From assembly GCA_023139575.1 (NCBI GenBank), contig JAGLNJ010000051.1:5926-69925 (forward strand): DNA of 64,000 nucleotides, given 5' to 3'. The position numbers and the translations under genes were made by a program. The DNA comes from Candidatus Omnitrophota bacterium. GTDB taxonomy: Bacteria; Omnitrophota; Gorgyraeia; Zapsychrales; JANLHA01. A model generated the notes under the pieces. That model was not told the DNA's origin and ran no database searches. It was given only the letters and a program-made list of their open reading frames with translations. Below are positions 3,001-39,015 of the stretch, one piece after another; position 1 is the first letter of the stretch, and each line of letters starts with the position of its first letter.

Positions 3001-5590
3001 TTATCCCCTTTGCCGCGGCTGACCCTAAAAAGAGCAATGAGCGGATCTTCAAGGTGGCTATAACTTGTTCTTCTCCACTCGATAAACCGCTATCGGCATG
3101 GTCCTTCCCCACATTATTATCAATAACGGCGGCGATTCCTACGGTAATCAGAGACTGCAACAAAGATTTGAGCATCTCACCGCCAATGGTACACTCAACT
3201 ATTTCTCCCTTAGAATTGGCATATGTCCCCAACGGAGTACCGTCTTTCTCATCTCCTGCGCTGGCGATATAGAGGATAGCGGCTAAATTAGCCCCCAGTT
3301 CTCCCACAGCCTCGGAAAGAAGCGATTCCGTGTCAACATCGAACTCATCAGCCGCCAGTCTGCGCAGATAATAGGATGCCAGGCTTTTTGTAATTGTCAT
3401 ACCGGCGGATTTCGCCCAATTGATTAAAGAAACAACCGCCGTATTATAAACATCAACCCTAGGGCCGCCGGCATCGACTTCTCCCTTGTGCGTGAGGCCC
3501 ATAAAATCTCTGAAATACGTGCCGCACGTTTCGTCTGCGATATGAGCAAAAGAAGTCATAGCGAAGGATGTGGCTATAGAAGTAATCGCCCCTGCCAAGG
3601 CGGATCTCAACTGCGGATCCATATCCTCATCAAGGTGTTCATAAACATAATCTGATATTTCCCTGCTTATGTATGCCTTCACCAGACCTTGCGCGAAACC
3701 GTGCGCGAAACCGGTAAAAAAGACTTTTGTCATACTCATTCTGGTAATATCCAAGGCCGCCTTATTAACAACTTGCTTTTTAACCGTATTCGAAACTGTA
3801 GATGTCCCTGAAGTCCTGAACAATCTGGCAACTTTTGCTTTTGCCTTGCTCCAGGTTTTGGCCGCCCACTTCCCGGCAGCAGAATTGGCGATTTTATCCC
3901 CCGCCACCTGTAATAATGTCCTTTCAGCAGTGCTAGCCCCGGCTTGGGGGGCCATCGCAAGATCAACGAAAACTTGTGATGCTTGGGCTGCTTGGGTGGC
4001 GGTCCCCCCTGAAGTCATAACATCACCCGCTATTTCTCCTGCCTGTGCAGCGAGTTCTTGTGAAGCCCCTGCATTAATGGCTTGGGCTGCCCCTTCTCCT
4101 GCGGCGGCCGAAGCTGCGGCATCTCCCCCCGATTTTACAAAGTCTTTTCCTGCTGCTTCTCCTGCAGCCTTTGCCATTTCTTGCGTTCCCCCGCTCTTGA
4201 CTGTGTCGGACGCCGCTTGTCCTGCGGCGACTTTTGATCCTTCCGTTGCCCCTTCTCGTAATCCTTCTGCAACTATAGCCTGTTCCGCCGCCAACGCTGC
4301 GGCCTGCGCGACCATTAAACAGCTAAAACCCACTGTCAATGCTATAGTCAGGGCGGTTCCCACCAGCATCGCCGTACCGGGGTCACAAGATCCGGTAACT
4401 TGACAAGCTTGAGCCCAGGTGCTGGTCATCTCGCTTCCGGCAACTCCCATCACTGCAACTACCGCCCCACCTGAGGCACCTACAGCTCCCAGAGAGCCCA
4501 TCCACCCTCCAAAAGCGATAGATACAACGGATATCACAATATGAAGCATCATAGCGCTGCCGCTGATAAAGCCGGGCAGGTCGTCGGATTTATCTACCCA
4601 GGCATTGCCCCAAACAAAGGCCTTTTGGGCATCCGGGATAATTTGGCAGGCTATTTTTTGTTTATCTAAATCCGGAGCTAAAACAAAACCGCTGAACTGT
4701 CCCAAAAACTCTTCAATTGTAAGGATCCTGAGTTTGCCGATATCTGTAATAATCACTTCATCGTTTTCTTTGTCAACGCTCTTGACCATAACAAAGTGCT
4801 CAGGATCCAGGTTGGCAATAAAAGGCGTCTGGATCTTAAGGGCATCCTTATCTGACACTTTCGCCGCAATAAGATTAAGGCCATAAGGCTGGGCAATTTT
4901 ATCCATCGCGAACAAGGACGTCTTCAACTCAGGTTCGCCCGGCTTTACAATCTCGTTCAAAAGATCAACAATGAGCGTCGCTTGCGACAATTCTTCCAAC
5001 GTTTGATAAATATTTCGGCTTGCCAAAAGGTCTCGTAACGCATAAATACCGCAATTCAACGGATGAATGTCAGGATCCTGCAACCAGGATGCCACCTGGT
5101 TTATGCTGTTTTCATCGAATCGCAGCTTAGTCTCCAGGGAGATTTTCTTCGGCTCTTTGCCAACCATTTTGCCGCCTTCAATTCTTGTGTCAGATATATA
5201 GATATTAACACGGGGATTATCGCGGTAAGCAACTTGGCCTAAAAACTTGCGCATGGCTTTAGCTAATTCAAGGGATAATTCTTCAGCAGTCATCGGCTCT
5301 GGAAAGAGAAAAGGCAGGTCTAACGGGTTCTCTTGCGGGGCTTGAAACTTTTCAGCTCCCCACAAAACACGGGGATCATAGCTTAACGCCCAGGAAATCT
5401 GTTCAGGCACAAACACTAACACAACGAGCAGGGCAATAGTTCGCAGCCAAGTTTTAAAACGGCTCTTGAAAGGCTGCTCCGGCTTTTTATCTAAAACGAA
5501 GGCAGAGAAGTCCCCATGATCAATATTATTAATAATATTGCTATTATTTACACTTTGGGAGCCTGCATTATTGTCCAATCTGTCTTCCAT
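1..5590 (-). CDS. Giant repeat-containing secreted/membrane-anchored protein, partial (>1860 aa; 3' end beyond window edge). N-terminal signal-anchor helix, Ala/Gly-rich low-complexity block, 30-aa x3 and 23-aa x2 tandem repeats
   Basis: Reverse complement from the ATG at 5588-5590 reads open (MEDRLDNNAGSQSVNN...RTIALLVVLVFVPEQ...) down to position 1. An in-frame TAA lies 2 codons upstream of the ATG. The ORF track lists no other M-to-stop minus-strand ORF in this frame over 5.6 kb, consistent with one long frame whose stop is outside the window. Plus-strand 'ORFs' here are low-complexity mirror frames. Confidence 0.6.
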   Translation of the reverse strand, partial: MEDRLDNNAGSQSVNNSNIINNIDHGDFSAFVLDKKPEQPFKSRFKTWLRTIALLVVLVFVPEQISWALSYDPRVLWGAEKFQAPQENPLDLPFLFPEPMTAEELSLELAKAMRKFLGQVAYRDNPRVNIYISDTRIEGGKMVGKEPKKISLETKLRFDENSINQVASWLQDPDIHPLNCGIYALRDLLASRNIYQTLEELSQATLIVDLLNEIVKPGEPELKTSLFAMDKIAQPYGLNLIAAKVSDKDALKIQTPFIANLDPEHFVMVKSVDKENDEVIITDIGKLRILTIEEFLGQFSGFVLAPDLDKQKIACQIIPDAQKAFVWGNAWVDKSDDLPGFISGSAMMLHIVISVVSIAFGGWMGSLGAVGASGGAVVAVMGVAGSEMTSTWAQACQVTGSCDPGTAMLVGTALTIALTVGFSCLMVAQAAALAAEQAIVAEGLREGATEGSKVAAGQAASDTVKSGGTQEMAKAAGEAAGKDFVKSGGDAAASAAAGEGAAQAINAGASQELAAQAGEIAGDVMTSGGTATQAAQASQVFVDLAMAPQAGASTAERTLLQVAGDKIANSAAGKWAAKTWSKAKAKVARLFRTSGTSTVSNTVKKQVVNKAALDITRMSMTKVFFTGFAHGFAQGLVKAYISREISDYVYEHLDEDMDPQLRSALAGAITSIATSFAMTSFAHIADETCGTYFRDFMGLTHKGEVDAGGPRVDVYNTAVVSLINWAKSAGMTITKSLASYYLRRLAADEFDVDTESLLSEAVGELGANLAAILYIASAGDEKDGTPLGTYANSKGEIVECTIGGEMLKSLLQSLITVGIAAVIDNNVGKDHADSGLSSGEEQVIATLKIRSLLFLGSAAAKGITASLASLTPASFTDMYDGKKNHSESDKKGAGSVFVSVFGNSLLEMGYDFLYSYTTFDGNHPAFNGTAGFASKGKTDEDGVGQLTYHAFMSNSDDKFVFGPDSFVAFADETSARAGLSPQEFRDIEDYEDQLAEHKAEQQELYDDGDIEHAPSDVYYDAQLRLAGHDIIESAAVLHSTKALNTVLAKHMQANVNASLGIALSSASTNQSYTDMLTHLGLYRSIRRYDGGEGFDKLLVLLGYASPLTPGLTDAELIGVFGGKRKSFMRAGYSINAKGKVDPVAHKGFNDPRLKFTEEETESLGIDPEEIVVKDKAGNVLFKPFSKDSDLVEIHRRIDEDPEIIASVAGLGVDGVKADVMLNFEGTGSYFFEEKGAGDRDTFTSHALLEGEDAKRLSIESKEDDATFLVRLAGVDENLLSVEPKVDDATLLARLAGVDGMLNEEISAFSYGEESGHDADGFTIASLLEGWEKGIFLPGKKAKRITISYNSDKKLSDFLEVLSAGGYSKALIDVLSGKGSPDEKWAALLNALKADGYSEAIIDVLSGGGSSDEKNEALLDELKAGGYSEALLNVLSGKGALDGALNTGAFSLMSGDLYAGSIGLTGDFSYLMDDSSYLKDDSDLREESIEEYETMAALLDILSGEGGEEVTITSANEQVLFGKSGEGDKSLYVYNEISLSSRSPVFGKESSYIYATFGRESMYEEIKWEDVSISAVFTDPKEFLKERQEEAGFQGGGVDMNMDGIIHDERKPRDKKGEVKDKKEPGADSPEEKKTELSTEPKEKPKEKESQSEPGPSKETSSIEEEANNLYASASSGVDGTPYRRTAAHESGPISKKYYKILKDQYDTNKKKSEQEEQIPGAGGPAGPDVKGPETEKEKTPSDKEKNYSSDPDKERLNKRTAELSVLEGKIKDKDALKFFSDGLAGFLDKQKGDKSFILRGINDTLTRDENTLALKVNPDADTVLAYTGQREAGAASFKTILGFGDKVIMGDNGQILDADNIVQ
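1278..1547 (-). repeat. Three tandem 90-bp (30-aa) in-frame repeats inside the giant gene (protein unit ~LLxxLKAxGYSEAxIDVLSGxGSxDEK)
   Basis: Direct repeat ccttTaccgctgagaac... recurs at 1278, 1368 and 1458 with 90-bp period. Confidence 0.7.
1700..1840 (-). repeat. Two tandem 69-bp (23-aa) in-frame repeats inside the giant gene (unit ~K[EV]DDAT[FL]L[VA]RLAGVD)
   Basis: Motif cgtggcgtcatc at 1724 and 1793, period 69 bp. Confidence 0.55.
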
Positions 5591-6420
5591 AATTTAGTTT
5601 TTTAGTTTCGAATGTCCAGACTTATTTGCTCGTTTATTTTCTCCCCCAAGAAAATGCGCCAAAATGACGAGAAATAAATTGGAACGACTTGGCTGGATTC
5701 TAACTCGTGAGGAAGGCAGAATCCAGCTCTCTCGTTTAATTCAAATCGAGAGAAAAGAGCGGCTGTGATACATTGAACCTTGTATAATAATCGTCTACGA
5801 CCAAGACGATTTGATGAAGCTAAAATTTTGTTTTTTTGTATGCTATTCTTGATTTTTCGCATGTTGCTTTAGGTTTAATGCCATCCATTAAAAAAGGACT
5901 ACCGTGTATTATGGTAGTCCTATAGAATATTCACCTATCAGGCTGTTTTTGCTGAGTTGTTTTTGTGACCGTCGCGGTTAGCCGCATTCTCACTCCATGT
6001 TTAAATGAATTTAAACCAACTCTGAACTATGCCTTATAAGTATAACATAATAATATATATTGACAAGCTTGCGAATAAATTTTTTTAAGATACATCTTGT
6101 TGGTATATATTAAGTTACAATCTTATCAAAAAACTCTTTCACATAAAAAATAATAATTTTTCGGGTAATAATATTGCAAACGCTTTCTTTCCATCCCATA
6201 GAACGCATAAATTTACATTATATACAAGGAACCCCTTTCACTCCACCTTATTCCATATGTTGCGGAGAAAGAAATTTGTTTCAATTATAAAACCACAAAA
6301 GTTACATTGGTAAACCATTGTTTAATTTTTTGTTCAAACTAAGGAAGTATTAACAAGCCTTAAAGTAGATTGGACATTTGATTCGAATTCAAAAGCGCTG
6401 CAGTATTGACATTTATAGCT

Positions 6421-6477: not shown

Positions 6478-7368
6478 TTATTCTTCTATCTTACTGGTCA
6501 TCTGATCCATTGGATTAGTTTCTAAAAATTGCAGAAAAATCGGCCCCGCAACCAAAATACCAACAGTAGGAAAGATAAAGAATAATAGCGGAACTAAAAG
6601 TTTCAACGGCGCTTTCATAGCCATTTTCTCGCCCCTTCGATAACGCGAAGTACGCATATCTTCCGAAAGCATGTTCAGAGCCTCTGAAACAGACGTTCCC
6701 ATTTTGTCCGCCTGAATAAGCGTTCGGGAAAAAGTAGCCAGTTCCGCAAGATCATATTTAGATGAAAGGTCTTTTAAAGCGTCTCTGCGCGTTTTACCGA
6801 CATTAATCTCCTGAAGCAAAGTGTTGAGCTCACTTACCATGACAGAGGGAGGGGATTTCTCGACAACCCATTTTAACGCCAACATAAAGTCCAAGCCGGC
6901 ATTGACACAAAGACCTAATAAGTCAATGGCGTCCGGCAATTCTTTAACCATAACCCCCTTCACGAAGCGTATCTTTCCCTTCAACCAATATTCGGGAAGC
7001 ATATAGCCAAAGCAAAAGCTCATCAAAAACCAGAAAATCATCATGTCAGGCTTAATCATCGGATAAGAAATGGCCAAAACAAAAATGATGCACACTTCTT
7101 TAATGAAAAAAAATTCTTCCGGCGAAATCGGAAGGTGAGCCACAGACAAATCTTTAACAATTCTCGTTCTCAGCTTGCCGGAGCAAAACGGTTTATTTAT
7201 CAAAGCAATCTTCCTGAATATCGATTGTTTTTTTCCTTTACTATCCCCATCGGAAGAGGCATAACCCAGAGCCTCCAGAGTGGGTCGGCTTTCCCAACCT
7301 AAGGGAAAAAGGCCGAGAATAAAACTGAACCCCGAAAGAAATACCATCGTCAATATAAAAATAATCAT
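6478..7368 (-). CDS. tadC: Tad/Flp pilus assembly inner-membrane protein TadC (GspF/T2SSF domain)
   Basis: 296 aa with multiple TM helices. Central T2SSF-like block ELPDAIDLLGLCVNAGLDF...RRDALKDLSSKY...LIQADKMGTSVSEAL, typical of TadC/CpaH. Confidence 0.8.
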   Translation of the reverse strand: MIIFILTMVFLSGFSFILGLFPLGWESRPTLEALGYASSDGDSKGKKQSIFRKIALINKPFCSGKLRTRIVKDLSVAHLPISPEEFFFIKEVCIIFVLAISYPMIKPDMMIFWFLMSFCFGYMLPEYWLKGKIRFVKGVMVKELPDAIDLLGLCVNAGLDFMLALKWVVEKSPPSVMVSELNTLLQEINVGKTRRDALKDLSSKYDLAELATFSRTLIQADKMGTSVSEALNMLSEDMRTSRYRRGEKMAMKAPLKLLVPLLFFIFPTVGILVAGPIFLQFLETNPMDQMTSKIEE

Positions 7369-7430
7369 GTCTTTCTACCCTTTCATTAACCCCTCTTTGC
7401 TGACAGCTCAGGCGGCTGAGAGCTCGCCTA

Positions 7431-8285
7431 TTAGTAGTCCTTCGACGTGCTGATCTTCCAAATCATAGCGGCGCCGATGATCTCGGAAAATGCCGCATAA
7501 ATCAAAAGAGCCCGTCCATTCTGCGACTGGATCATATGATTAAAAAATGTCGGGTTCGCTCCGTATACAATAAAGAAAAAAGCCACCGGAAGCAATGACA
7601 TAACAACGCCCTGAATTTTACCTTGTATTGTCAACGTGTCAATTTGCCCCTGAACGCGCTTCTGTTCACGAATAACACCCACAATACGAGAAAAGATAGC
7701 GGGTAAATTACCTCCTGTCTCTCTCGCCAGAAGAATGGCTGTTGTCATCTGCTGCAAAGCCGACGACGGCATGCGATTGTATAAATGGTTGAACGCCTCT
7801 TCTAAGGAAACTCCCATTTTATTCTCGCCGAGAACCGTCCCGAACTCTTGATTGATAGGGTCCGGCATTTCTTCGACGACCGCTTCCATGGCCTGAATTA
7901 AACTCAACCCACCTCTAAAAGAACTCGACATAATCATCAAGGCATCAATTAACTGATTATTAAATTTTCTTCTATTGCCCTGCAACAAGGCCTTTGTATA
8001 AAGCCCCGGAAACAAAACACCAAAGGCTATGCCGATAACAATGCTGAAAACGCGCACTTGCGCCGGAGCTATCGCATAGCCGATCGCGCCGCCAACGAGA
8101 GGAGCTAAAAGATATACTTGTGAAATTTTTTGAATCTGCTGACGAGGAATTATCCTGTCCAATTTGTTGGACAATTTTTGGGCTCGCTTTTGACTTAAAC
8201 CCACTGTTTTATTATAGACGGTAGGCACCACAGAATACCCTATTAAGGCCGCGGTACAAAAAACTAAAAATAATGTGATCGCCAT
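7431..8285 (-). CDS. tadB: Tad/Flp pilus assembly inner-membrane protein TadB (GspF/T2SSF domain)
   Basis: 284 aa. T2SSF-like block FRGGLSLIQAMEAVVEEMPDPINQEFGTVLGENKMGVSLEEAFNHL...ARETGGNLPAIF. It sits directly upstream of tadC. Confidence 0.8.
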   Translation of the reverse strand: MAITLFLVFCTAALIGYSVVPTVYNKTVGLSQKRAQKLSNKLDRIIPRQQIQKISQVYLLAPLVGGAIGYAIAPAQVRVFSIVIGIAFGVLFPGLYTKALLQGNRRKFNNQLIDALMIMSSSFRGGLSLIQAMEAVVEEMPDPINQEFGTVLGENKMGVSLEEAFNHLYNRMPSSALQQMTTAILLARETGGNLPAIFSRIVGVIREQKRVQGQIDTLTIQGKIQGVVMSLLPVAFFFIVYGANPTFFNHMIQSQNGRALLIYAAFSEIIGAAMIWKISTSKDY

Positions 8286-8366: not shown

Positions 8367-8879
8367 TTATTCCTTAATACCCCAGCACATATTGCTATTA
8401 CAATTTTCGCTTCTGCAATCTGCTATGCAGATCTGACACTTTGTAGCATATTCATCATGATCTTTCGGCAAATCGCAATCACAATTAGCGCGAAAGCACT
8501 GTGATCCCACCCATATATTCATGGCTCCATCTGCCTGGGCGCAGGTATCACATATCGGTTCTCCGACAGGAATCGGACTACAAGGCGGATCATCAAGCGT
8601 GCAGCAGGGTACCAGCCATCCGGGCATTGTATAAACATTCAGGCCCCCCGTAATCACTACAGAATCATAAAAACATTCTTCCGTCGCGTTCGGATCATAC
8701 TGCTTGCCGTGGCCGAAAGAATTACCGGCATTACGCCATTGACCGGACAAACCTCGTGCTAAATATTTTTGGAAAACAAAAAATGTGCTGGCAATAAAGA
8801 ACATGACAAACATATATTCCAAGGCCGAAACTGCTTTTTTATTGTTTGCATTAGTAAATAATATTTTCTTTTTATTCAT
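8367..8879 (-). CDS. Cysteine-rich Flp/TadE-like pilin-like protein (170 aa, about 18 Cys)
   Basis: N-terminal class-III-signal-like segment KKAVSALEYMFVMFFIASTFFVF followed by YLARGLSGQWR...QYDP, a motif shared with pilin paralogs 4 and 7. The C-terminus is packed with Cys (CCTLDDPPCSP, CDTC, CDCDLP, CQICIADCRSENCNSNMC). Confidence 0.55.
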   Translation of the reverse strand: MNKKKILFTNANNKKAVSALEYMFVMFFIASTFFVFQKYLARGLSGQWRNAGNSFGHGKQYDPNATEECFYDSVVITGGLNVYTMPGWLVPCCTLDDPPCSPIPVGEPICDTCAQADGAMNIWVGSQCFRANCDCDLPKDHDEYATKCQICIADCRSENCNSNMCWGIKE

Positions 8880-8901: not shown

Positions 8902-11900
8902 TTAATTGGCGCCGGACAAAAACGCCCCGTCACACGGCACAAATTTTAACCGCATGCCTTGGTTTGCGTATAACATAGAATCACCAACACTCCTTGTCAC
9001 CAAATAGCCAAGCTCACCCATTTCACCCTCATCAAAGAAATACGCCGCGCAACTTTCCTCTACTACCCCGTGAGGCAACAAGTGCTCATGCACATAATTC
9101 CAACAATTAATATACTCAAGCTTTGAAAAACCCAGAGCCATTACCCCCCACTGAGCATCCGTTATAGCATGCGGGAAAGTGGCAATAGAATATTTGCTAT
9201 AATTTAACATAAACGCATAGCCCCACTCTGACCCATCAAGTAATTGTAACGGCCGGCACGCTCCTTCGACGCCAGCAACCTCCCCAGCTGAAAGTTCATC
9301 CGCTGCGGGATTATAATCACGAATCTCCCATAAATCTGAGTCGTCTGGAAACGTGATTACTCCTTGCACCTCTTCCGATTCATCAAACCGGATAACGCGC
9401 ACCTTTACCATACCCTCTGTGGAAACCAATTCATAACAACGGCTCGTCCCCCAATCCTTCGTGTAACTATCCACACGCGGCCACTCGGGATCCGGGCCAC
9501 CAACAGAATCAGGCCCTCCCTCAACAGGCCAATAACCGCAGGCATTATTACACCGTCCGGGAGCCCTTACCTCAACCTTGACAGCATGCCAGAAACCTTT
9601 GGAGCTTCCGTCTGCGCGCAACTCATCATCTTCCAGATCTTCGTCCTGCCACACATAAACGACGACAGATGCCGTTCCTTTTGTGTCCTCATAATTAAAG
9701 CGCGCTTGCACCATGGTTTCCATCGGAGAGTCCTGATCAAAAGGCGCGGGTGACGCCGTATTAAAAGGACTGTTTCCGTCAAGAAAGGCCGTAAAATGCT
9801 TCCATCCGTCATGCAAAATAAGCATGGCCCTTAAAGCTTCTTTCAATCTCGCTTGCAGGAACAGAAATCGTTTTTTAAATTTTGCCACCTGATTTTCCGC
9901 GTTTTTCATACAAGCTTCTGCTGTAGCCAAAAAAGCTCCCGAAGGATTAAAGGATCCTTGTGTCAGTTCCAAGCTCTCCACCAAAGAATCATACCATGTT
10001 GAATCATGCCATAAGGCTACTTCGGCGGCGGTAAACTCAGGCTCAGCAATCAGCCAAGCGCAACTAAAATAATTTTCCGGCAAAACCGTTTCCTCTTCAT
10101 AAGGCTGATCCCAAATCGGAAGCAAATAAGGATAATCAAAGGCCCAGCCGAAAGGCATCGCGGCCGGAGAGCAAAGAGTGATGCAGTCTGCGATCGCCGC
10201 CGGGTCTGGCGGTGGAACCATAAGATCCGGGGTGATATTGAAACATGCGTCAAAGGCAGCTTCATGTGCCGGGTCCGCGGGCCACTGCCATGCAGGCAGC
10301 GTAACAAGCAGCCCGGCCGAAGTGCGGTACTCCTGGGGCAACACTGAATTATTACAATTAGCCCTGCACTCCGCCATATTTGCCGAATTATAGCAAGTAT
10401 CAAACAACGCGCTTGCGACAGGATCCGGTGTTAGTTCATTAAAGTCCGGATCAGTCGCATCTCTTGCAACCAAGACCGCCGGACGGAAAGAGGCGTCACC
10501 CATAGACGGAAGAGGCGTGCCGGGAAAAGTATGGCAACTCCCTAAATTATAAGGCGGTTGTGTCATGGTTAGAGCATTTGTTACCGCATCAAAAAAGATC
10601 GTGTTATACAGTGGATCTGATGGATCATGAAACCAGGCACAACTACCCGGCTCAAGTGACGGTGGTGGTGGATCCTCAAAAACAGGCGGCACAAAGGCCG
10701 GCAATCCGGCACAATAATAATTACATTCAATAACATCCGCTGACACCAGGCATCTCATTATCTCTTCCGACGCTCCCGCGTTGCCGAAATCCATCCCCTG
10801 GAAGAGAATGGCGTCCGCCCCGGGAACCAGACACCGCGGCAATAACAAACAGGCCTCTGCCGCTCCGGCAGAATCCCCGGAAAAAAGAGCGTCAAAACAT
10901 CTTTGAAACTTCTGAGCATTTCCGATCGCGGGCGCGAGACCGCTTAGAGGGTATGTTCTTTCATCATTGACCTGCCAATTCAAACAGCTGACCACATCAA
11001 ACAGGTCTCCTCGAGACGGCTGATCAAACTCATCTGTAACGCTTCTTGTAAACATGGTCGGATCTATTTCGTTATAAACGGCCGCGGGAAAATCATCAAA
11101 AATCCAGTCACCCGCAGCAGGAACATAGTTAAAGCTGTCCGCTTCACCAAGAACAAACCCTATCGTCGGCGTTACATAAGGACATTCATTGACCCCATAT
11201 TCATTGGGGGCTGCTTGTTCCGGCGGGACGCACCAAACATCCATCTCGTTGCAACTGTCGGCAACATAGGGATTCGGCAGCACACCAATACCAAGGTCTT
11301 TAGTGTCCATACCTGCGGGATAAAAGCCCGGATGAGGAAATCCTTCATTAACTCCCATGCCATAAGGAGGGGAAAGATCAAAAGGCGGTGCTTGAGCATA
11401 AATCCAATAAAATATCCTCCACCAAAAACGATATATCTCATAACGCCATACCCATAACGTCCCATCATTTCCTTTTACAAAACTAAAAGGACATGCCCCT
11501 CCCTTAGCTCCCATATCCTCATCCAGGCGCTCTCCTGTATTAACATTTACACAAGGAGCCTCAAGCCAAGAGGATGCTATTTTATACCATTCCTTAGTTG
11601 TTTTTACCAATGCCCGTAAATTCTGGTCCAAAAGTGTTTCTGCATAAGAATAAAATTCACTTAAACCATAGACGATTTCGTCCAAAGAGTCTTCTGGATA
11701 CTCGGCTGGATCAGTCCCTCCGACCCCGCAATCACATGTATACGGCACATCCTGCAGATAAGGAAATCTAAGCCTCCTCTCTTGAGAATACGGGTCTGTG
11801 TGGTCTTCCCATGACGCGTCATCATAACACGCTCGATGTTTCGGGCAGTTTCCTTCATAAGGATACACATCCGAACAGAAACGATCCGCCCCCCTCTTCC

Positions 11901-13716
11901 ATCCCCCCTCACCTAAAGGATCCGCAGCGCAAGTGTCATCGTCGGCAATTAACCCTGCCGGCATCGGGACCTTATCCGCCAGCTGAGGAGGGTCACCCGC
12001 AGCGCCGGTATTGGCTTCGTCCAAACACCAATCGCCGCTGAAAGGAGCGTCACCTAAAATGTTAGGAAGTTCAAGCCGACTATTAATTCCATCGTGATCA
12101 TCATCGGCCATTTCCGGATATATATCAGCTAAAATACATGGCACCCCCGATCTTACATCACAATAAACACATTGATCATCAGTGTAATCTAAATATAATG
12201 GGGACAATTCTGTGCCCCAATCGGCAATTTTATGAAAAAGCTGAAAAATCCCTCCAGCAGGATAATTGTCGTTCAAAAGTCCCGGGCGCAAATCATAATT
12301 CATGGCATAAATCGGTGTTTTGTAATAACCCGAGACGTCATCTAATCTAAAAAGGCCTTCAATGGAACTCCCGACCGTGCTTTCCTGCCGTGTCAAACGC
12401 AGCCTGTCAGGATTGGCCGCATCAAAATAAGCCGGGTCTGTCGGGTTATAACGATAGAGATGGTGCTCATCATCCCGCCCCAGCAACTCTCTAAACGAAT
12501 AAAATCCATTAGTATGGTCTTCATATGCCGAATCGTAAATCTCTTCATATATTTCTCCGGCTTTATCATACGGCGTATTAGCCACACAAAGAGCCGGGTT
12601 CCCGCAAGGGTATTGCGGATCTCCAGGATCGTTACAGCAAGGCGGCATCACCGGAAGATTCTCTTCTCTGCCGTCGAATATAAGCACCCCCAAAATATCT
12701 ACACCAAAATCAGACACACAGCACGGATTACATTCTGAAGGCATGTCCAAAGGGAAGTCCGCAGGGAGGGATGGAAAGTTTCCCGGGCAGCACGGGTGTA
12801 TACCTGCCGAGGTAACACAATCTACCGGGTCTAAGAGTCCCCAGGTAGAAAACTGAGCGTTAAGATCATTACACAAGGCCACGTTCATGCCACTACTCCC
12901 ACAGTCAATATTGCATTTACCCGGATCCGCGTAAAGAAAACATGCCATGGATTGCTGAAAAAACTGAATAGCGTTAACCGGCGGGGCAATTATTGTTCGC
13001 AGTCGGTCTGTATAATAATAGGCAAACCGGGAAACATAATCACTGGCTTCATTCCTGGCAATGGCCGCATTCGTCTCCCAGTTAAGATCCTGATCAATAT
13101 CATGGAGGTCTGGAAAATAAACCTGATCCGTAATCGAATTCTGCAGCCCCATCAAAATCCCCCGCTCAATGAGCATGTCTTCAATAGAAAGGGCTTCTGC
13201 CATCATTTTATTCCATAGAGTCGTAATCCCGGGCTGCACAATTGTTAGTTGGACAACTAAAGAAGCCACAGACAAGATTAGAGCAAGACCCAAACAGACC
13301 AACTTCAGGGCAACGAAAGTCGCTGTCCCCGCGGAGGCGATAGTGATTATTATCGCAATAATGACAATGACAATCGTAAAGATGGCTTTTAAAACACCCG
13401 TCATGCCGCAAATACGCTGACGGCCCCCTAAAACTTCTTGAAATATTCTTTCCCCGTAGCTGGCCATTAAAGAAACCATATGCCCGGCAGATGCATTCGC
13501 CGCCATAACCGCAATGGTCTTGGTCCGTGAAACTCTCCCCATATTCATTACAGCCGCATAAATAATAAGAGCCAGGGCGGCTATAAGAATAAGAACAACG
13601 CCGACTTGGCCAGAGGTGTTTTTTAAAGAAGTTCTGTTTTTTTCTGAAAAGGAAAAAACGCTGTTTTTCCTGAAAACGTTTTGAATATTTTTTCGCAATA
13701 ATCTAAACATTAACAA
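8902..13716 (-). CDS. Giant (1604 aa) cysteine/proline/aspartate-rich TadG-like pilus-associated protein; putative pilus tip or adhesin
   Basis: N-terminus SGQVGVVLILIAALALIIYAAVMNMGRV resembles the Tad N-terminal (TadE/G-like) membrane domain. Two further TM helices follow, then a huge extracytoplasmic region with many CC/CxC motifs (HPCCPGNFP, CNPCCVSDFG, PPCCNDPGDPQYPCGNPALC) and D/P/Y/W-rich segments. It sits inside the tad operon. Confidence 0.6.
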   Translation of the reverse strand: MLMFRLLRKNIQNVFRKNSVFSFSEKNRTSLKNTSGQVGVVLILIAALALIIYAAVMNMGRVSRTKTIAVMAANASAGHMVSLMASYGERIFQEVLGGRQRICGMTGVLKAIFTIVIVIIAIIITIASAGTATFVALKLVCLGLALILSVASLVVQLTIVQPGITTLWNKMMAEALSIEDMLIERGILMGLQNSITDQVYFPDLHDIDQDLNWETNAAIARNEASDYVSRFAYYYTDRLRTIIAPPVNAIQFFQQSMACFLYADPGKCNIDCGSSGMNVALCNDLNAQFSTWGLLDPVDCVTSAGIHPCCPGNFPSLPADFPLDMPSECNPCCVSDFGVDILGVLIFDGREENLPVMPPCCNDPGDPQYPCGNPALCVANTPYDKAGEIYEEIYDSAYEDHTNGFYSFRELLGRDDEHHLYRYNPTDPAYFDAANPDRLRLTRQESTVGSSIEGLFRLDDVSGYYKTPIYAMNYDLRPGLLNDNYPAGGIFQLFHKIADWGTELSPLYLDYTDDQCVYCDVRSGVPCILADIYPEMADDDHDGINSRLELPNILGDAPFSGDWCLDEANTGAAGDPPQLADKVPMPAGLIADDDTCAADPLGEGGWKRGADRFCSDVYPYEGNCPKHRACYDDASWEDHTDPYSQERRLRFPYLQDVPYTCDCGVGGTDPAEYPEDSLDEIVYGLSEFYSYAETLLDQNLRALVKTTKEWYKIASSWLEAPCVNVNTGERLDEDMGAKGGACPFSFVKGNDGTLWVWRYEIYRFWWRIFYWIYAQAPPFDLSPPYGMGVNEGFPHPGFYPAGMDTKDLGIGVLPNPYVADSCNEMDVWCVPPEQAAPNEYGVNECPYVTPTIGFVLGEADSFNYVPAAGDWIFDDFPAAVYNEIDPTMFTRSVTDEFDQPSRGDLFDVVSCLNWQVNDERTYPLSGLAPAIGNAQKFQRCFDALFSGDSAGAAEACLLLPRCLVPGADAILFQGMDFGNAGASEEIMRCLVSADVIECNYYCAGLPAFVPPVFEDPPPPSLEPGSCAWFHDPSDPLYNTIFFDAVTNALTMTQPPYNLGSCHTFPGTPLPSMGDASFRPAVLVARDATDPDFNELTPDPVASALFDTCYNSANMAECRANCNNSVLPQEYRTSAGLLVTLPAWQWPADPAHEAAFDACFNITPDLMVPPPDPAAIADCITLCSPAAMPFGWAFDYPYLLPIWDQPYEEETVLPENYFSCAWLIAEPEFTAAEVALWHDSTWYDSLVESLELTQGSFNPSGAFLATAEACMKNAENQVAKFKKRFLFLQARLKEALRAMLILHDGWKHFTAFLDGNSPFNTASPAPFDQDSPMETMVQARFNYEDTKGTASVVVYVWQDEDLEDDELRADGSSKGFWHAVKVEVRAPGRCNNACGYWPVEGGPDSVGGPDPEWPRVDSYTKDWGTSRCYELVSTEGMVKVRVIRFDESEEVQGVITFPDDSDLWEIRDYNPAADELSAGEVAGVEGACRPLQLLDGSEWGYAFMLNYSKYSIATFPHAITDAQWGVMALGFSKLEYINCWNYVHEHLLPHGVVEESCAAYFFDEGEMGELGYLVTRSVGDSMLYANQGMRLKFVPCDGAFLSGAN

Positions 13717-13727
13717 ACCTTATTTTA

Positions 13728-14039
13728 TTAATCATAAGGACGGTCCTTTTGAAAAATTTCGCTTCTCACGCTCGGTTGAAAGGGCGCTGTTCCTCCCTTA
13801 TAAAAACGCGGACGCAGTTGATAAAGGATGCCGTCATAACTTGCCGGAACATCTTCTATTAAACCATCTCGATGCGCCGCCAACCTTCCGATCAAGTCCT
13901 TGCCCGACCATACAAAAAGTCTGATCGTTCCCAAAATGATCAAAACCGTTCCGAACAAGCTAAAACACAATTCTAAGGCAACCTGTGCCTTATTGCGACA
14001 TCGCTGTTCCTTTTTTCTTCTAAACAAAAAAATACGCAT
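13728..14039 (-). CDS. TadE-like pseudopilin (103 aa)
   Basis: N-terminus KAQVALELCFSLFGTVLIILGTIRLFVW matches the TadE-type N-terminal hydrophobic segment; small size; lies in the tad operon. Confidence 0.5.
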   Translation of the reverse strand: MRIFLFRRKKEQRCRNKAQVALELCFSLFGTVLIILGTIRLFVWSGKDLIGRLAAHRDGLIEDVPASYDGILYQLRPRFYKGGTAPFQPSVRSEIFQKDRPYD

Positions 14040-14048: not shown

Positions 14049-15587
14049 TTACAAATTAGAGCCAGGCACTCTTGTAATCCATTGATGCCCCCGCTGATCA
14101 TGCACGCGGGAACGGACAACCAACAACATCGTTTCCAGATCAAGACACGTTAATTCAACGTTGGAGCCTTCATAACAATTGCCGCAAACCTCAACCGGGT
14201 TGGTCATGCCGAAAACACCATGAATAGTCGCAAAAGGAAGCCCTCCTGCCCCATATATAATAGTTTCGTCGGCTTCTTCCCAATTTACAGGAACACCGTT
14301 ACGGCAAAACCTCCCGGTATCGTTAGTTATTTTAAAAATCCTCTCTATAATATCAAGATTCTCCTGAATTAAAGTATGGCGTGTTTGACTGTTTTCCAAC
14401 TCATAAGCATTCGTTAACGCGCTTCCGTCTCCTTCAAGGCCGGTAAAAGAATACATTGTCATATCTGGCAGAAGACCAATCTTAATATAGGTTTGGGCAG
14501 GGTTTCGCAGCAAGAATATCTTAAGATCCATATCATCTTCGGCATTGTTTAAATCACCTTCTTGAGAATCCATAACTCTCAATTTTGTAACAACCCCATA
14601 TTGATCCGTTGACCAGTCAACAATACTTTCTTCTCTCAGATCCCCATCAACATCTATCAGTGTGTTAATCTGTTCGTCAGGTAATATCCCTCTTATCCCT
14701 TTATAAAAAGAGTCATCGAAAAACACATTTTTGTACTTCTTAAACTTGTCGTGGTTAACACCGGCCACCGGCATCCATTGCCATGCAAATTTACTTCGGG
14801 CAGCCGCAGTGGCTACATCAGGGGCACCGCCGCTAAAGTCCAAATCAAAACGATTCACTTCGCCAGCTTTAAAATCGTAAGGCTGGCTTTGATTGGCGAG
14901 CCTAGCAAAAAATATTGTACAGCCGACAATGCCAACACCGGGAAGAAACATGCATTGCGACTTATAACACGTACCATGAGGCGCTATGCTTTCCAAAGCA
15001 GGAACTGCAGCGTAATACGGGCTGCATTCCTGGAGGTTAACAACTCTTGTTCCTCCCGACCAGGTGTCCTGCCAGCTCACAGCGGCATTACCCGTGCCGG
15101 AAGGATAATTATAGCGGCGAAAAGCGGATAATGTAAATGGAAAACGCTGCCCGTTTATAAAAATATCCTGAACGGGAAGATTCCAATGCTCACAAATACC
15201 GTTTTCATTTGGGCATTCTACAGGATAAAACATAGCTTTAGTAAACGACGCGCTAGCTGATGCGACAAAAGGAATCCTGTCCCGAGTGCCTGTGGGTTGG
15301 GAAGCATCTGCCGACAACCTGTCTTCCAAAACCAATACTGACGCCGTATTCCGAGCTGCAGACGTCTGATAGGTTATGGTTCCATAGTTATATTTACCTT
15401 CTCCCGTGCGAAAAGACTCAATCATAGCCAGACGCATCGTCTTCAGGCTCTGATTCATCATTGAGCTGGACTGCAGGGCAGCCTTCACGATGAGCCCAAT
15501 AATAAAAATAACAATGGCTCCGAAAATGGCTAATTCGGTAGCTGATTGTGCTAATCTCAATTTTTTTTTCTTTGGGCTATTCAACAT
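14049..15587 (-). CDS. TadG/TadE-like large pseudopilin (512 aa)
   Basis: N-terminus KKKLRLAQSATELAIFGAIVIFIIGLIV (class-III-like A-Q-S-x-x-E-L plus a TM helix), followed by a large Cys-containing soluble domain. It lies immediately downstream of the pilin array. Confidence 0.55.
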   Translation of the reverse strand: MLNSPKKKKLRLAQSATELAIFGAIVIFIIGLIVKAALQSSSMMNQSLKTMRLAMIESFRTGEGKYNYGTITYQTSAARNTASVLVLEDRLSADASQPTGTRDRIPFVASASASFTKAMFYPVECPNENGICEHWNLPVQDIFINGQRFPFTLSAFRRYNYPSGTGNAAVSWQDTWSGGTRVVNLQECSPYYAAVPALESIAPHGTCYKSQCMFLPGVGIVGCTIFFARLANQSQPYDFKAGEVNRFDLDFSGGAPDVATAAARSKFAWQWMPVAGVNHDKFKKYKNVFFDDSFYKGIRGILPDEQINTLIDVDGDLREESIVDWSTDQYGVVTKLRVMDSQEGDLNNAEDDMDLKIFLLRNPAQTYIKIGLLPDMTMYSFTGLEGDGSALTNAYELENSQTRHTLIQENLDIIERIFKITNDTGRFCRNGVPVNWEEADETIIYGAGGLPFATIHGVFGMTNPVEVCGNCYEGSNVELTCLDLETMLLVVRSRVHDQRGHQWITRVPGSNL

Positions 15588-15614: not shown

Positions 15615-15944
15615 TTATGGAATTAACGATACGGATCCTGCCACGGACTGTGTCATATTCGCCGTATCAAGACGCAAAGTCCAATATCCCGGCTCGCTGT
15701 TAACAAGGTCTGGAACTGCTTCCGTATATGTTGTCGAATTGCCGGTCGTCGAATACGTCACCGCACCATTCATAAGCTCAGGATCATATTGATCGCCTAT
15801 CCCGTCAACGGCATCGCGCCACCTTCCCTGAATCCCTCTTTTAAAATAAATGCCGCCGACAAAAACAGCGGCCACAATAATCGTTGTCAACACAATATAC
15901 TCTGAAGCGCTTTGTCCCATCTTTTTTTTCATTCTAATGAGCAT
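15615..15944 (-). CDS. Flp-type prepilin paralog 7 (109 aa)
   Basis: MKKKMGQSASEYIVLTTIIVAAVFVGGI carries the G/QSxxEY class-III signal plus a TM helix. YFKRGIQGRWRDAVDGIGDQYDP is shared with paralog 4 and the 170-aa Cys-rich protein. RBS GGTGG lies upstream of the ATG at 15944. Confidence 0.7.
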   Translation of the reverse strand: MLIRMKKKMGQSASEYIVLTTIIVAAVFVGGIYFKRGIQGRWRDAVDGIGDQYDPELMNGAVTYSTTGNSTTYTEAVPDLVNSEPGYWTLRLDTANMTQSVAGSVSLIP

Positions 15945-15967
15945 TTTCCACCTTCTTTTTTCACCCT

Positions 15968-16318
15968 TTATAACGGATCCTTCTCGAGAAACCCCAAATT
16001 AGCATGCGTTTCTGTCATAACACTCTGCCCACGCATAATTGAATAAGTAGTCTCTCCCATATCTTCTGCTTTCGTTTTTGAGTCACTTAGCTGAATTTGC
16101 GCCGTTGAGTTAATCACTATCCCCATTTTTCCGCCAAGCTGTTCCGCCTCTTCTTGATTTCCCACTTGATCTGACATCATTTTTACCATGGCCTGCGCCG
16201 TTCTCTTGACCATTGGAGTCATAACCATTCCTATAGAAAATATAACGCCCAGCAAAAAGGTATATTCCAAAACTGTTTGCGCTTTTTTCTTTGATTGTTT
16301 GTTTTTGTATCTTATCAT
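15968..16318 (-). CDS. Flp-type prepilin paralog 6 (116 aa)
   Basis: KKKAQTVLEYTFLLGVIFSIGMVM; A at -1 of the putative cleavage site; hydrophobic helix. Confidence 0.6.
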   Translation of the reverse strand: MIRYKNKQSKKKAQTVLEYTFLLGVIFSIGMVMTPMVKRTAQAMVKMMSDQVGNQEEAEQLGGKMGIVINSTAQIQLSDSKTKAEDMGETTYSIMRGQSVMTETHANLGFLEKDPL

Positions 16319-16326
16319 AAATATAT

Positions 16327-16698
16327 TTAGTTAGCATACTTGGGCGCCAACTGATTAGTAAAAGTGTCCGTAGTTGAAGTGTGATCTATTTCAAAACGAA
16401 ACTCTTCAGCCAAGGTCGGAAACTGCTTTCGAATTATGTTACTTGCAACAACCCTCCTTGCCATTTGATTAACATAATATGGTTCGTATGAAAAATATCC
16501 AACTCCCTGGTAGTCGTCGCTGTCAAACTCCTCTTTTACTTCCTTGACCATGAAGAGGCGGACATCCCGTATTTTAGACTGAACAGCGCGGCGAAAATAT
16601 GTCGCCATAGACATAATAATGGCAACCACGAGAAAAAACATAATAGAATGTTGTATGGCCAAGCTTTGTCCGTTTTTATTTTTCAGTTGTTTAAGCAT
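16327..16698 (-). CDS. Flp/TadE-like pilin paralog 5 (123 aa, degenerate signal lacking Glu+5)
   Basis: NKNGQSLAIQHSIMFFLVVAIIMSMATYFRRAVQSKIR has G-Q-S but Q instead of E at +5; no obvious SD. Confidence 0.5.
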   Translation of the reverse strand: MLKQLKNKNGQSLAIQHSIMFFLVVAIIMSMATYFRRAVQSKIRDVRLFMVKEVKEEFDSDDYQGVGYFSYEPYYVNQMARRVVASNIIRKQFPTLAEEFRFEIDHTSTTDTFTNQLAPKYAN

Positions 16699-16764
16699 TA
16701 ATCTATAAATATTAGTATGAATATTAAATAATTAAAATAGAAAATTTGCTCTACCTCACAAAAT

Positions 16765-16807
16765 AAAGAATGGCTTACCTAAAATTCCCTCAAGTAAGCC
16801 ATTCTTT
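16765..16807 (-). terminator. Perfect 14-bp inverted repeat (intra-cluster hairpin/attenuator) between pilin paralogs 4 and 5
   Basis: AAAGAATGGCTTAC-N15-GTAAGCCATTCTTT. On the minus strand it is followed by ATTTTGTG, in the 156-nt gap between the pilin-4 stop and the pilin-5 start. Confidence 0.45.
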
Positions 16808-16853
16808 ATTTAACACATTAAACATTCCTTTTACTTAAACTAGGGCGATGAAA

Positions 16854-17174
16854 TTATCCCCAGAAAGGTTGCTCAGCGTTAATAATTTCCTGATTTGATG
16901 TAACTGTTGTAATCTCATCGGCTAGCAAAACTGATGAAGTTACTCCATCCTGAAACGTTTCTTGCGTACTTGCCGATGTAATTGTCATTTTAATTACATT
17001 TGTGTTTCCCGGAGCATACTGATCCCCGATGTCATCAGTAGCGCTACGCATACGACCTTGAATACCTCTTTTAATATAAACCTGTATAGATAAAAGAGCG
17101 CCTATCACGATGATAATCAAAACAGCATATTCGAGAGTGCTTTGCCCTTTCATCTTTCTTAAAAATTTAAACAT
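16854..17174 (-). CDS. Flp-type prepilin paralog 4 (106 aa from the ATG at 17174)
   Basis: MFKFLRKMKGQSTLEYAVLIIIVIGALLSI plus YIKRGIQGRMRSATDDIGDQYAP. AAGGAGG RBS lies 8 nt upstream of the ATG at 17174, while the ORF track starts 10 codons earlier. Confidence 0.7.
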   Translation of the reverse strand: MFKFLRKMKGQSTLEYAVLIIIVIGALLSIQVYIKRGIQGRMRSATDDIGDQYAPGNTNVIKMTITSASTQETFQDGVTSSVLLADEITTVTSNQEIINAEQPFWG

Positions 17175-17233
17175 TGATATATCCTCCTTATCAAATATTA
17201 GCATTTTAACGCTTTACCTAGCAAAGACTCACC

Positions 17234-17611
17234 TTAAATACCGTCAATCAAGCCGAGAGTCGTATCATACTGTGATACCTGAGAACCGCCAGTTCCACGA
17301 GTTCTGGTGTCATCGACGTTGTAAGCGATCATCGCCGAAAGATCAGCTCTTTGCTTTTGCAGTTCTGATTCGGTACTTGCCGTGGTAACAGCATAATTTG
17401 TTTCCAAGTAATACGGTTCGTATTGGTTAGTAGTGTCTCCGAGACCTGCTGTTTCGTTCGTTAAATATGTAGAAGCAGCGCGAATTCTGGCTTGGAGAGT
17501 TCTTTGCGCATAAGTCTGCATAGCAATTACAGCCGCGACGACCAAAGAAATCAAAAGGGCGTATTCAGCTGTCTGCTGTGCTTTTTTATTTTTAATGATT
17601 CTTTTTAACAT
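17234..17611 (-). CDS. Flp-type prepilin paralog 3 (125 aa)
   Basis: MLKRIIKNKKAQQTAEYALLISLVVAAVIAM; GGAGGT RBS upstream of the ATG at 17611. Confidence 0.65.
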   Translation of the reverse strand: MLKRIIKNKKAQQTAEYALLISLVVAAVIAMQTYAQRTLQARIRAASTYLTNETAGLGDTTNQYEPYYLETNYAVTTASTESELQKQRADLSAMIAYNVDDTRTRGTGGSQVSQYDTTLGLIDGI

Positions 17612-17667
17612 TTATTGTACCTCCGTAAACGTTATTTATAGTCTATCTTCATTTTTGTTAACTCCCA

Positions 17668-17874
17668 TTATGGAGCGACTGGACGGGAATCTGACAAGCG
17701 CTGAGCCATATCATCCATGTCATCTGTGCTGTCCGTCAGTGTCGTTTGAAGCTGTGTTTGGAAAAGTCCACCCGGACCTAAGAAAACAATAAGAATGGCA
17801 ACAACACCAGCTACAAGAATGATGTACTCTAAGGTGCTCTGCCCTTTTTCCCTTCTGTTAAGCTTTTGTAACAT
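17668..17874 (-). CDS. Flp-type prepilin paralog 2 (68 aa from the ATG at 17874)
   Basis: MLQKLNRREKGQSTLEYIILVAGVVAILIVFLG; AAGGAGG RBS upstream of 17874. The ORF track extends to 17934, but that 5' extension has no RBS. Confidence 0.7.
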   Translation of the reverse strand: MLQKLNRREKGQSTLEYIILVAGVVAILIVFLGPGGLFQTQLQTTLTDSTDDMDDMAQRLSDSRPVAP

Positions 17875-17935
17875 TATATTTTCCTCCTTACTTACTAAGT
17901 CTTTCTGCTTTTTTAGGCGTTTCCAAAAAAACACC

Positions 17936-20749: not shown

Positions 20750-21094
20750 CTATGCTTCTTTTATCAACTCATCCCCTATTTGAGTTTGCGTTTCATCAAT
20801 CGTCCCCTCTGGCAATTCAATACAATAATTTGCGCGAATAAAATAGGGACCCATCCTATAAGGTTTGATCCTTTTTACAAGACCGATAACTTTATTATTT
20901 TTGTCTACAAAAATAACATCGATTGTGAAACGCATAAAAAGCATGTGGATGGAGCGGCATTGTGTAATGATAAAGCCGTGCCCTTGCGGTAAATTGTCGC
21001 GCCCTAATAAACCAACAAGACGTGATAGCGCTGTATCCGCCAGCTCAGTTTGCTGAGAGATCGTGGTGTTTCGTGTTTTATTGATTATTTTCAC
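20750..21094 (-). CDS. DUF192 (COG1430) family protein
   Basis: LSRLVGLLGRDNLPQGHGFII..CRSIHMLFMRFTIDVIFVD...CIELPEGT matches the DUF192 pattern (GLMGR...GMLF...IHMFFMRFPIDVIF...ELPAG). Its start overlaps the ATPase stop by 4 nt. Confidence 0.65.
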   Translation of the reverse strand: MKIINKTRNTTISQQTELADTALSRLVGLLGRDNLPQGHGFIITQCRSIHMLFMRFTIDVIFVDKNNKVIGLVKRIKPYRMGPYFIRANYCIELPEGTIDETQTQIGDELIKEA

Positions 21095-23262: not shown

Positions 23263-23389
23263 AAAATTATATTTTACATGCTTTACAAAAAAAATCCAGT
23301 TAAATTTATTTTAAAAAAGCGATTGCTTCCAATTCGTGCGTATAAAACGGGAGAAAATCATGAACGTTTCAGAAAAATGAGGTCAAAAA

Positions 23390-25270: not shown

Positions 25271-25346
25271 ATTTACTCCCTAAACTTCCAGTTAACCTCA
25301 TAAAAAGTGAATAACCATAGCATACCTTATTCTTAACCGTTAACCT

Positions 25347-38637: not shown

Positions 38638-38775
38638 ATGAAGAAGAATTTAACAACTCCAACGATACTAAAAGGTAAAAGAAAGCACGGCTTTCGCAAA
38701 AGGATGTCTACATCTGATGGGCAAGACACGATCAAAAGGCGCCGCGCTAAAGGGAGAAAAAGGCTAGCTAAATAA
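38638..38775 (+). CDS. rpmH: 50S ribosomal protein L34
   Basis: 45-aa [48 protein letters not shown] (below the ORF-track size cutoff), a typical L34. Confidence 0.8.
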
Positions 38776-38801
38776 GATCATCCTTTGCCTGCGACTACCC
38801 A

Positions 38802-39011: not shown

Positions 39012-39015
39012 TTTT

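Follow-up and report, generated by a model that had tools for sequence, protein, structure and literature searches.

A large disulfide-rich protein with a pilin-like N-terminus in the Tad operon of Omnitrophota: a candidate pilus-tip or contact protein

Introduction

Large proteins that start or cap Tad pili have been described in a few bacteria. In CpaL, the TadG homolog of Caulobacter, an N-terminal pilin module is joined by a strand from the extreme C-terminus of the protein; module and strand are needed for pilus initiation, and the large middle of the protein sits atop the tip and is largely dispensable (PMC12607857, PMC13533445). In Myxococcus, trios of KilL, KilM and KilN provide interchangeable tips with disulfide-rich distal domains, and part of these trios lie apart from the main locus; a hidden Markov model search by the same authors restricted Kil tips to the Myxococcota (PMC12075869). 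Tad pili are also one of the main genomic arguments for a predatory or parasitic lifestyle of the Omnitrophota (PMC10066038), which are widespread, uncultivated and ultra-small bacteria thought to be predators or parasites. Here, we analyse a 64-kb stretch of a Candidatus Omnitrophota genome (contig JAGLNJ010000051.1; hereafter the window), in which the Tad operon carries a gene for a cysteine-rich protein of 1602 amino acids (aa). An original prediction, made from the letters of this DNA, had read the protein as a giant candidate adhesin on a TadG-type anchor. In papers on the Omnitrophota, TadB, TadC and RcpA alone represent the Tad loci and this protein goes unmentioned, and the literature on V. 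archaeovorus yielded no usable data on it.

Results

The gene is a core component of the Omnitrophota Tad operon

The gene for the 1602-aa protein lies on the minus strand inside a complete Tad/Flp operon, as originally predicted and as the RcpC, secretin, TadZ-TadA, Flp-type pilin, TadB and TadC genes confirm. The operon runs in the order RcpC/CpaB, secretin-TonB_C, TadZ-TadA, DUF192, a 629-aa gene, six pilin-like genes, a 512-aa gene, a 103-aa gene, the 1602-aa gene, a 170-aa gene, TadB and TadC. In a scan of GTDB species genomes, which used eight closer sequences as query and samples only those family members that carry the two motifs used, the giant gene occupied the same slot in 26 of 26 species-level loci wherever the contig reaches: pilins, 512, 103, giant, 170, TadB and TadC, all on one strand. 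The full order shared by these loci is TadZA, DUF192, 629, flp, 125, 116, 123, 116, 109, 512, 103, giant, 170, TadB, TadC, and the gene order is identical at the loci of the family members P0004, P0028, P0022 and P0016 (L001, L003, L005 and L033). We conclude that this is a core gene with a fixed position in the Omnitrophota Tad operon.

The conservation of the operon is uneven. Median identity to the window proteins across the 26 loci is 69% for TadA, 65% for TadC and 62% for TadB, and falls to 38% for the 103-aa, 36% for the 170-aa, 30% for the 512-aa, 29% for the giant and 25% for the 629-aa protein. One further member, P0013, forms an orphan pair with a 520-aa, 512-like gene at 8428-14530 of L004, where there is no Tad locus. 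Because the 512-like gene still precedes P0013 there, the giant gene and its 512-aa neighbour behave as a unit. The genes next to this pair encode radical-SAM and glycosyltransferase proteins, and the pair is reminiscent of the tip clusters that Myxococcus encodes at separate sites (PMC12075869).

The genes of the operon, all on the minus strand of the window, are as follows.

8902-13710, minus strand: coding sequence of the 1602-aa protein (stop codon 8902-8904; an in-frame TTG upstream, at 13716, is the mechanical start of the open reading frame)
14049-15587, minus strand: 512-aa partner gene with a prepilin-like N-terminus (A|QSATE), always directly upstream
13728-14039, minus strand: 103-aa partner gene, small and prepilin-like (A|QVALE)
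8367-8879, minus strand: 170-aa partner gene, prepilin-like (A|VSALE), with a Cys-rich C-terminal half (14 Cys, 8.2%)
7431-8285, minus strand: TadB (PF00482), the platform protein directly downstream; TadB and TadC together span 6478-8285
6478-7368, minus strand: TadC (PF00482), platform protein
15615-17934, minus strand: six pilin-like genes with Flp/class III signals (88, 125, 116, 123, 116 and 109 aa), all with G/A-x4-E, upstream of the giant gene
18527-20416, minus strand: 629-aa open reading frame between DUF192 and the flp genes, GC content 0.36, with a weak hint of HTH_32 only
20750-26144, minus strand: remainder of the Tad machine, from RcpC to DUF192
20750-21094, minus strand: DUF192, part of the Tad operon
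21091-23262, minus strand: fusion of TadZ (ParA-like ATPase) and TadA, part of the Tad machine
23390-25270, minus strand: secretin (RcpA/CpaC) fused to a C-terminal TonB_C, part of the Tad machine
25347-26144, minus strand: RcpC/CpaB, part of the Tad machine

The 512-, 103- and 170-aa partners are called prepilin-like from the G/A-x4-E motif alone, and comparison with the Pfam models did not detect TadE (PF07811) in any of the three. Orthologs of the 170-aa gene, always found between the giant gene and TadB, encode 79-141 aa with 2-8 Cys. Both the secretin-TonB_C and the TadZ-TadA fusions recur in homologous loci. We considered the 629-aa open reading frame as an insertion sequence and rejected this, as orthologs stand at the same place in 23 of 26 loci at a median identity of 25%; the frame thus belongs to the conserved gene set of this operon. 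No Dsb gene is found within the 64-kb window.

The open reading frame is intact and its composition native

On re-inspection, positions 8902-13716 hold a single uninterrupted open reading frame, as had been claimed, and the start alone has shifted: counted from the TTG the frame has 1604 codons, but translation probably begins at the ATG at 13710, which has an AAGG Shine-Dalgarno motif 5' of it and gives the 1602 aa on which all residue numbers here are based. The protein is 100% identical to NCBI KAR05_03390, deposited as 'MAG: hypothetical protein' of Candidatus Omnitrophica bacterium. It contains 55 Cys in 1602 residues (3.4%), compared with 0-2% in the products of neighbouring genes, except for the next gene downstream at 8.2%. 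Thus, the richness in Cys that the original prediction stressed holds relative to the neighbours, and the motifs it quoted are found at aa 305, 327 and 356; 3.4% is nevertheless typical of the family described below, and CC, CxC and CxxC occur no more often than in shuffled sequences of the same composition. The same shuffles divide the predicted DP/DxD stretches: DP is modestly enriched (18 vs 10.8, p = 0.019) and DxD is not. CxxxC also shows a modest enrichment (6 vs 1.9, p = 0.011). The protein is rich in Asp (8.1%), Pro (7.5%), Tyr (4.6%) and Trp (2.2%), in agreement with the prediction, and is acidic overall (D+E 13.9% vs K+R 6%), with a net charge of -139 in its ectodomain.

The GC content of the gene does exceed that of the whole window (0.478 vs 0.419); the earlier reading had called it visibly higher than in the flanking pilin genes. 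The excess is compositional and does not mark foreign DNA, a possibility that the earlier reading had suggested checking, because the amino acids of the protein combined with the codon usage of the other window genes predict a GC content of 0.477, and GC at third codon positions (GC3) is ordinary (0.444, where the other genes average 0.415 +/- 0.053).

The protein belongs to a large family without annotation

A word-indexed search returned 28 homologs, 1056-1733 aa long and 26-34% identical, the named ones all from Omnitrophica. Repeating this search with an alignment did not enlarge the family; an exhaustive profile search of 1.84 billion representatives did, yielding 856 proteins at E <= 1e-3, of which 405 reach E <= 1e-30; nearly all can be aligned over their full length. 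All named or located members are from Omnitrophota, as are the metagenome-assembled genomes (MAGs) that contain all 26 GTDB loci. Seven loci with the complete Omnitrophota-type operon come from MAGs deposited as 'uncultured Planctomycetales bacterium', which probably reflects how the source records were labelled.

The representatives are mostly 1000-1700 aa long. Their full range of about 1000-1733 aa is the family norm, so the size of the protein, thought exceptional in the original prediction, is not; by length it ranks 142nd of 149 full-length representatives. Across these 149, Cys content has a median of 3.7% and ranges from 2.2 to 6.3%. The family is unannotated, with no Pfam model and no fold relative: the whole 1602-aa protein has no Pfam or NCBIfam match at E <= 1, and its ectodomain has no match in a sequence-profile search of the PDB and no PDB fold match.

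The N-terminus resembles that of pilins

The protein is organised into the following regions, given from the N-terminus to the C-terminus. TM denotes a transmembrane helix and AF2 denotes AlphaFold2 models.

13609-13710, minus strand: cationic leader, aa 1-34, ending at Gly34; cytoplasmic, resembles a prepilin leader
13417-13608, minus strand: TM1 and its periplasmic helical extension, aa 35-98; pilin alpha1-like and Tad/PF13400-like, with N56, K64, S80 and S84 near-invariant
13408-13410, minus strand: Cys101 in the TM1-TM2 loop, the inferred disulfide partner of Cys1425
13231-13401, minus strand: TM2-TM3 hairpin, aa 104-160, after a loop of ~45 residues; family-specific, low AF2 confidence
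13084-13128, minus strand: acidic loop, aa 195-209 (DQVYFPDLHDIDQDL), consensus PDLxDxDxDGxxG; D195, D201, D204, D206 and D208 are 92-99% conserved
12586-12942, minus strand: densest Cys region and the only very dense one, aa 257-375, with 14 Cys in 120 residues; C307, C327, C330, C331, C359 and C375 are 91-98% conserved
11431-12585, minus strand: ectodomain core, aa 376-760, with G411-R-D413-D414-E-H (G and D413 100%, D414 97%)
10711-11073, minus strand: conserved block, aa 880-1000, with the Cys module GNAxKFQxC..C..C..LPRSLVP (C909, C938, C954); AF2 local confidence (pLDDT) 80-94
9991-10710, minus strand: variable insert, aa 1001-1240, with low family occupancy, low AF2 confidence and degenerate copies of the Cys module
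8905-9990, minus strand: C-terminal region, aa 1241-1602, a ~50-residue helix and a beta-rich domain (Y1352, W1354, H1375, R1441, D1443, C1425)
8929-8955, minus strand: terminal strand MRLKFVPCD, aa 1586-1594; F1590 95%, C1593 99% and KFVPC 95-99% conserved

Throughout the family, a short cationic leader with Gly or Ala directly before a hydrophobic helix of ~20 residues follows the pattern of a class III signal peptide. The leader has a median length of 24 aa and a net charge of +5, and the residue at -1 is Gly in 134 of 136 members and Ala in the other two. Residue +5 is I, V, L, M or A in all 136, never Glu (or Phe); all nine other pilin-like open reading frames of the operon have G/A-x4-E. 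In the AF2 model of the homolog P0007, residues 21-81 form one continuous 60-residue helix, like pilin alpha1.

Profile comparisons point in the same direction. PF13400 matches the 1602-aa protein with 15.9 bits (E = 0.017) when the isolated segment is scanned, and only then, the gathering score being 22.3; for calibration, an annotated, bona fide TadG from Ralstonia reaches 20.4 bits and also stays under this threshold. PF13400 is the commonest match among N-termini of the family (9 of 25 members at E <= 1, best E = 1.8e-4). Aligned by hhalign with 20 bona fide TadG proteins, the N-termini fall into register (P = 5-8e-4, probability 24-31%), pairing GQVAV with RGAV, the invariant N56 with an invariant D of TadG, and AAN or AAD with ADxAA; beyond the first ~57 columns, hhalign aligned nothing. 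The Tad-type N-terminus proposed earlier is thus upheld by signature, register and the matches of relatives, with a PF13400 score of its own that lies below threshold. Judged by signature and weak profile similarity, the N-terminus appears pilin- or Tad-like, which does not establish membership of the TadG family.

A membrane hairpin and an ectodomain with many inferred disulfides

The protein has three hydrophobic helices, at about aa 35-58, 104-128 and 135-160. The two extra TM helices of the original prediction are therefore present, and they are conserved: 120 of 136 members have at least three TM-like segments, and none occur elsewhere in the protein.

The parity of Cys counts carries information about topology. 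The ectodomain alone holds an odd number of Cys in 123 of 138 complete members, and counting the TM1-TM2 loop together with the ectodomain makes the number even in 127 of 138 (binomial p = 4e-26); in the 1602-aa protein, 53 ectodomain Cys and one in the loop give 54. C101 and C1425 covary, with both present in 138 members, C101 alone in none and neither in six full-length members (Fisher p = 3e-8). These six share only 29-41% identity with one another, and their losses are independent, because the nearest relatives of each keep both Cys. A second long-range pair, C622-C1387, and the local pairs C358-C369 (r = 0.85), C820-C843, C938-C954 and C517-C562 also covary. Together, parity and covariation indicate about 27 disulfides in the 1602-aa protein and imply that the TM1-TM2 loop and the large domain share an oxidising compartment; a C101-C1425 disulfide would tie the conserved C-terminal domain covalently to the loop that follows the N-terminal helix. 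The evidence argues strongly for an inner-membrane protein with a cytoplasmic N-terminus, whose remaining residues, about 1440 in number, face the periplasm or the outside, carry a strong negative charge and are held together by the roughly 27 disulfides.

Conserved ends flank a variable middle

Conservation across the family is high at aa 35-240, 320-720, 880-1000 and 1241-1600 and low at about aa 240-320, 760-880 and, most of all, 1000-1240. About 24 Cys columns are invariant or near-invariant; Cys, Asp, Gly, Trp and Pro account for most of the conserved positions, and R228 is invariant as well. The acidic loop at aa 195-209 resembles a DxDxDG Ca2+-binding loop and may be one. The core at aa 376-760 also holds the motif WKRGxDRFC (W604 to C612) and the pair D674/D677.

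We obtained AF2 models of the full-length homolog P0007 (mean pLDDT 69.9, predicted template modelling score, pTM, 0.62) and of aa 880-1602 of the 1602-aa protein (mean pLDDT 62.1, pTM 0.40). Both models show a Cys-rich coil region, helices including the ~50-residue helix and a confident beta-rich C-terminal domain, and both predict the terminal sequence as a strand. The middle of the protein varies in content as well as in sequence: P0027 (1322 aa), which alone among 27 members has Pfam domains, carries FN3 and FN3-like Pur_ac_phosph_N modules where the variable middle would be. Of 149 members, 42 contain two to five copies of a three-Cys module, and the 1602-aa protein has a single significant copy. 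Repeat copy number as a cause of size was largely rejected, its correlation with length being 0.26.

Surroundings of the operon

Directly downstream of TadC, an open frame of at least 1864 aa (2-5593, minus strand) runs off the start of the window. A single TM helix near its N-terminus is followed by a Peptidase_C39-like domain (aa 221-307), and its N-terminus is homologous to open reading frames of 29,688 aa (L001) and 23,460 aa (L003) that also follow TadC in related loci; L033 has a 14,803-aa open reading frame at the same position. A Tad operon plus a giant open reading frame thus looks like a conserved arrangement.

Next to the Tad operon, dnaA, dnaN, gyrB and gyrA lie on the minus strand, and yidC, parA and parB diverge from them on the plus strand from 39016 (region 36828-39016). 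The replication origin is probably at about 38.2-39.0 kb, which would place the Tad operon about 12 kb away. The window also contains a 6S RNA at 55066-55221 on the plus strand (Rfam, 65.6 bits) and five tRNA genes (30032, 45224, 45389, 45627 and 61785), and the rest of it consists of housekeeping genes.

Discussion

We have defined a family of more than 850 clusters of unannotated proteins that are a fixed part of the Tad operon core and carry a fast-evolving, disulfide-rich ectodomain. This combination of fixed core position, fast evolution, pilin-type N-terminus and disulfide-rich ectodomain makes the protein the most obvious candidate for a host-contact determinant. The analogy with CpaL and KilN makes a role at the tip or in contact plausible (PMC12607857, PMC13533445, PMC12075869), and we favour, at about even odds, the more specific proposal that the 1602-aa protein is an Omnitrophota-specific member of the TadG/CpaL/KilN class, which would initiate and cap the pilus and present a surface to the host. 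On this proposal, the protein and the adjacent prepilin-like 512-, 103- and 170-aa proteins would form a complex that primes pilus polymerisation on TadB/TadC and then caps the filament, exposing the fast-evolving, disulfide-stabilised middle to the host or prey cell. GspK/PilK-type tip subunits lack Glu5, and the absence of Glu at +5 would fit a top-most subunit of this kind. The rate of evolution fits an exposed part, because median identity is 29% where TadA, TadB and TadC retain 62-69%.

Several observations weigh against a tip subunit, and some of them favour a protein that never leaves the membrane. Members throughout the family keep the TM hairpin, no described TadG, CpaL, KilN or GspK has one, and a protein with three membrane helices should be hard to pull out into a filament. 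Similarity to TadG is marginal, given the sub-threshold PF13400 score and the 24-31% alignment probability, and is confined to a hydrophobic segment; it is suspect because such segments often give spurious matches. The AF2 model lacks the canonical pilin beta-sheet after alpha1, at moderate model confidence (pLDDT 70 and 62), and our search for a lectin, vWA or other known fold of the adhesin type, as the original prediction had suggested making, matched none. No Peptidase_A24 or other prepilin peptidase gene lies within the 64-kb window, and only gene order speaks for a complex with the three prepilin-like partners. As the main rival, an inner-membrane-resident Tad component, kept in place by its three TM helices and never extruded, could instead act as a scaffold, align or gate the passage between the TadB/TadC platform and the secretin, or serve as basal anchor or terminator of the filament. 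In favour of this, the C101-C1425 link would put the C-terminal domain at the membrane-proximal loop, and the operon has no recognisable TadD or RcpB gene, so that a role in periplasmic or outer-membrane assembly is left to fill. TadG of Aggregatibacter, moreover, was originally described as an inner-membrane protein. We regard a resident component as possible and somewhat doubtful, since the protein diverges as fast as the least conserved genes of the operon, unlike the well-conserved TadA/B/C machinery, and has a hypervariable middle that FN3 modules replace in P0027; the orphan pair with the 512-aa gene outside a Tad locus also speaks against it, and a prepilin-type leader with an invariant Gly or Ala at -1 is hard to explain in a protein that stays behind.

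An effector or enzyme that is merely co-regulated with the pilus, for example one with lytic or toxic action on the host envelope, might use GRDDEH and further acidic residues as an active or metal site. The invariance of G411, D413 and D414, the invariant charged residues R228, H1375, R1441 and D1443, and an ectodomain fold that matches nothing known leave room for catalysis. The protein nevertheless matches no enzyme family in Pfam, NCBIfam or PDB sequence searches, is anchored in the membrane through a pilin-type N-terminus and occupies a fixed slot between pilin and platform genes, and its conserved Cys, Asp, Gly, Trp and Pro residues are typical of structural or metal-binding roles, all of which makes an enzyme very unlikely. 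Finally, the higher local GC content could have signalled a recently acquired foreign adhesin module, or the frame could have been mis-assembled, fused or a pseudogene. Host codon usage accounts for the GC content exactly, GC3 is ordinary, and the uninterrupted frame matches more than 140 homologs collinearly over its full length and sits at the same position in 26 species; synteny and the GC analysis together effectively refute a foreign origin or artefact.

The hairpin may also be seen as part of a tip function. It is conceivable, if improbable, that a pilin-like tip subunit carries the hairpin outwards hidden in the filament core and inserts it into the host membrane on contact; the Tad pilus would then be a contact-dependent device for anchoring or penetration, akin to a translocator, and not a simple adhesive fibre. 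Also, given the proteins of 15,000-30,000 residues encoded after TadC, the pilus and a giant surface protein could cooperate in host attack.

Returning to the proposed tip protein, its place among known systems can be described by what it shares with each. Like TadG and CpaL, it is encoded in a tad locus beside small TadE/F-like pseudopilins, is far larger than the other pilins and has a PF13400-like hydrophobic helix after a cationic leader that ends in Gly. Its ends are conserved and probably linked and its middle is variable, so that it follows the same conservation logic as CpaL, with a conserved N-terminal module and extreme C-terminus around a large middle. Unlike TadG and CpaL, it lacks vWA, Tad_C (PF09977) and PF26942 domains, shows no similarity past about 57 residues, is two to three times larger, contains about 27 disulfides and has no Glu or Phe at +5; unlike TadG with its single N-terminal helix, it has three hydrophobic helices. 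It is therefore not an oversized version of an ordinary TadG, as had first been supposed, since nothing past the first ~57 residues is TadG-like.

GspK, PilK and PilX offer a further parallel, as the largest minor pilin without Glu5, proposed to be the top-most subunit of the initiation complex (PMC13533445). The 1602-aa protein differs from them in having no sequence or fold match, an about five-fold difference in size and extra TM helices. With PilY1/PilC, which are large, tip-associated and controlled by a Ca2+-binding acidic loop, it may share a putative DxDxD(G)-like loop at aa 204-209; PilY1, however, is not a pilin, lacks an alpha1 helix and has a beta-propeller, and neither PF05567 nor a propeller is matched in the 1602-aa protein.

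The parallel with KilN of the Myxococcus xanthus Kil system extends to lifestyle. Both occur in predatory or host-dependent bacteria and are large, pilin-like proteins with a variable distal domain of no known fold and many predicted disulfides; both have smaller pilin-like partner genes next to them and extra copies outside the main locus (compare L004). No sequence relationship to KilN was shown, and the 1602-aa protein differs in its hairpin, in its typically larger size and in having three partners (512, 103 and 170 aa) where KilN has two. What sets the family apart from the known large Tad tip and initiation proteins is a new ectodomain, an estimated 23-27 disulfides and the conserved extra TM hairpin. 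It would extend the concept of an adaptable tip, represented by Myxococcus KilN and Caulobacter CpaL, to a distant phylum, with extra membrane helices as its particular twist.

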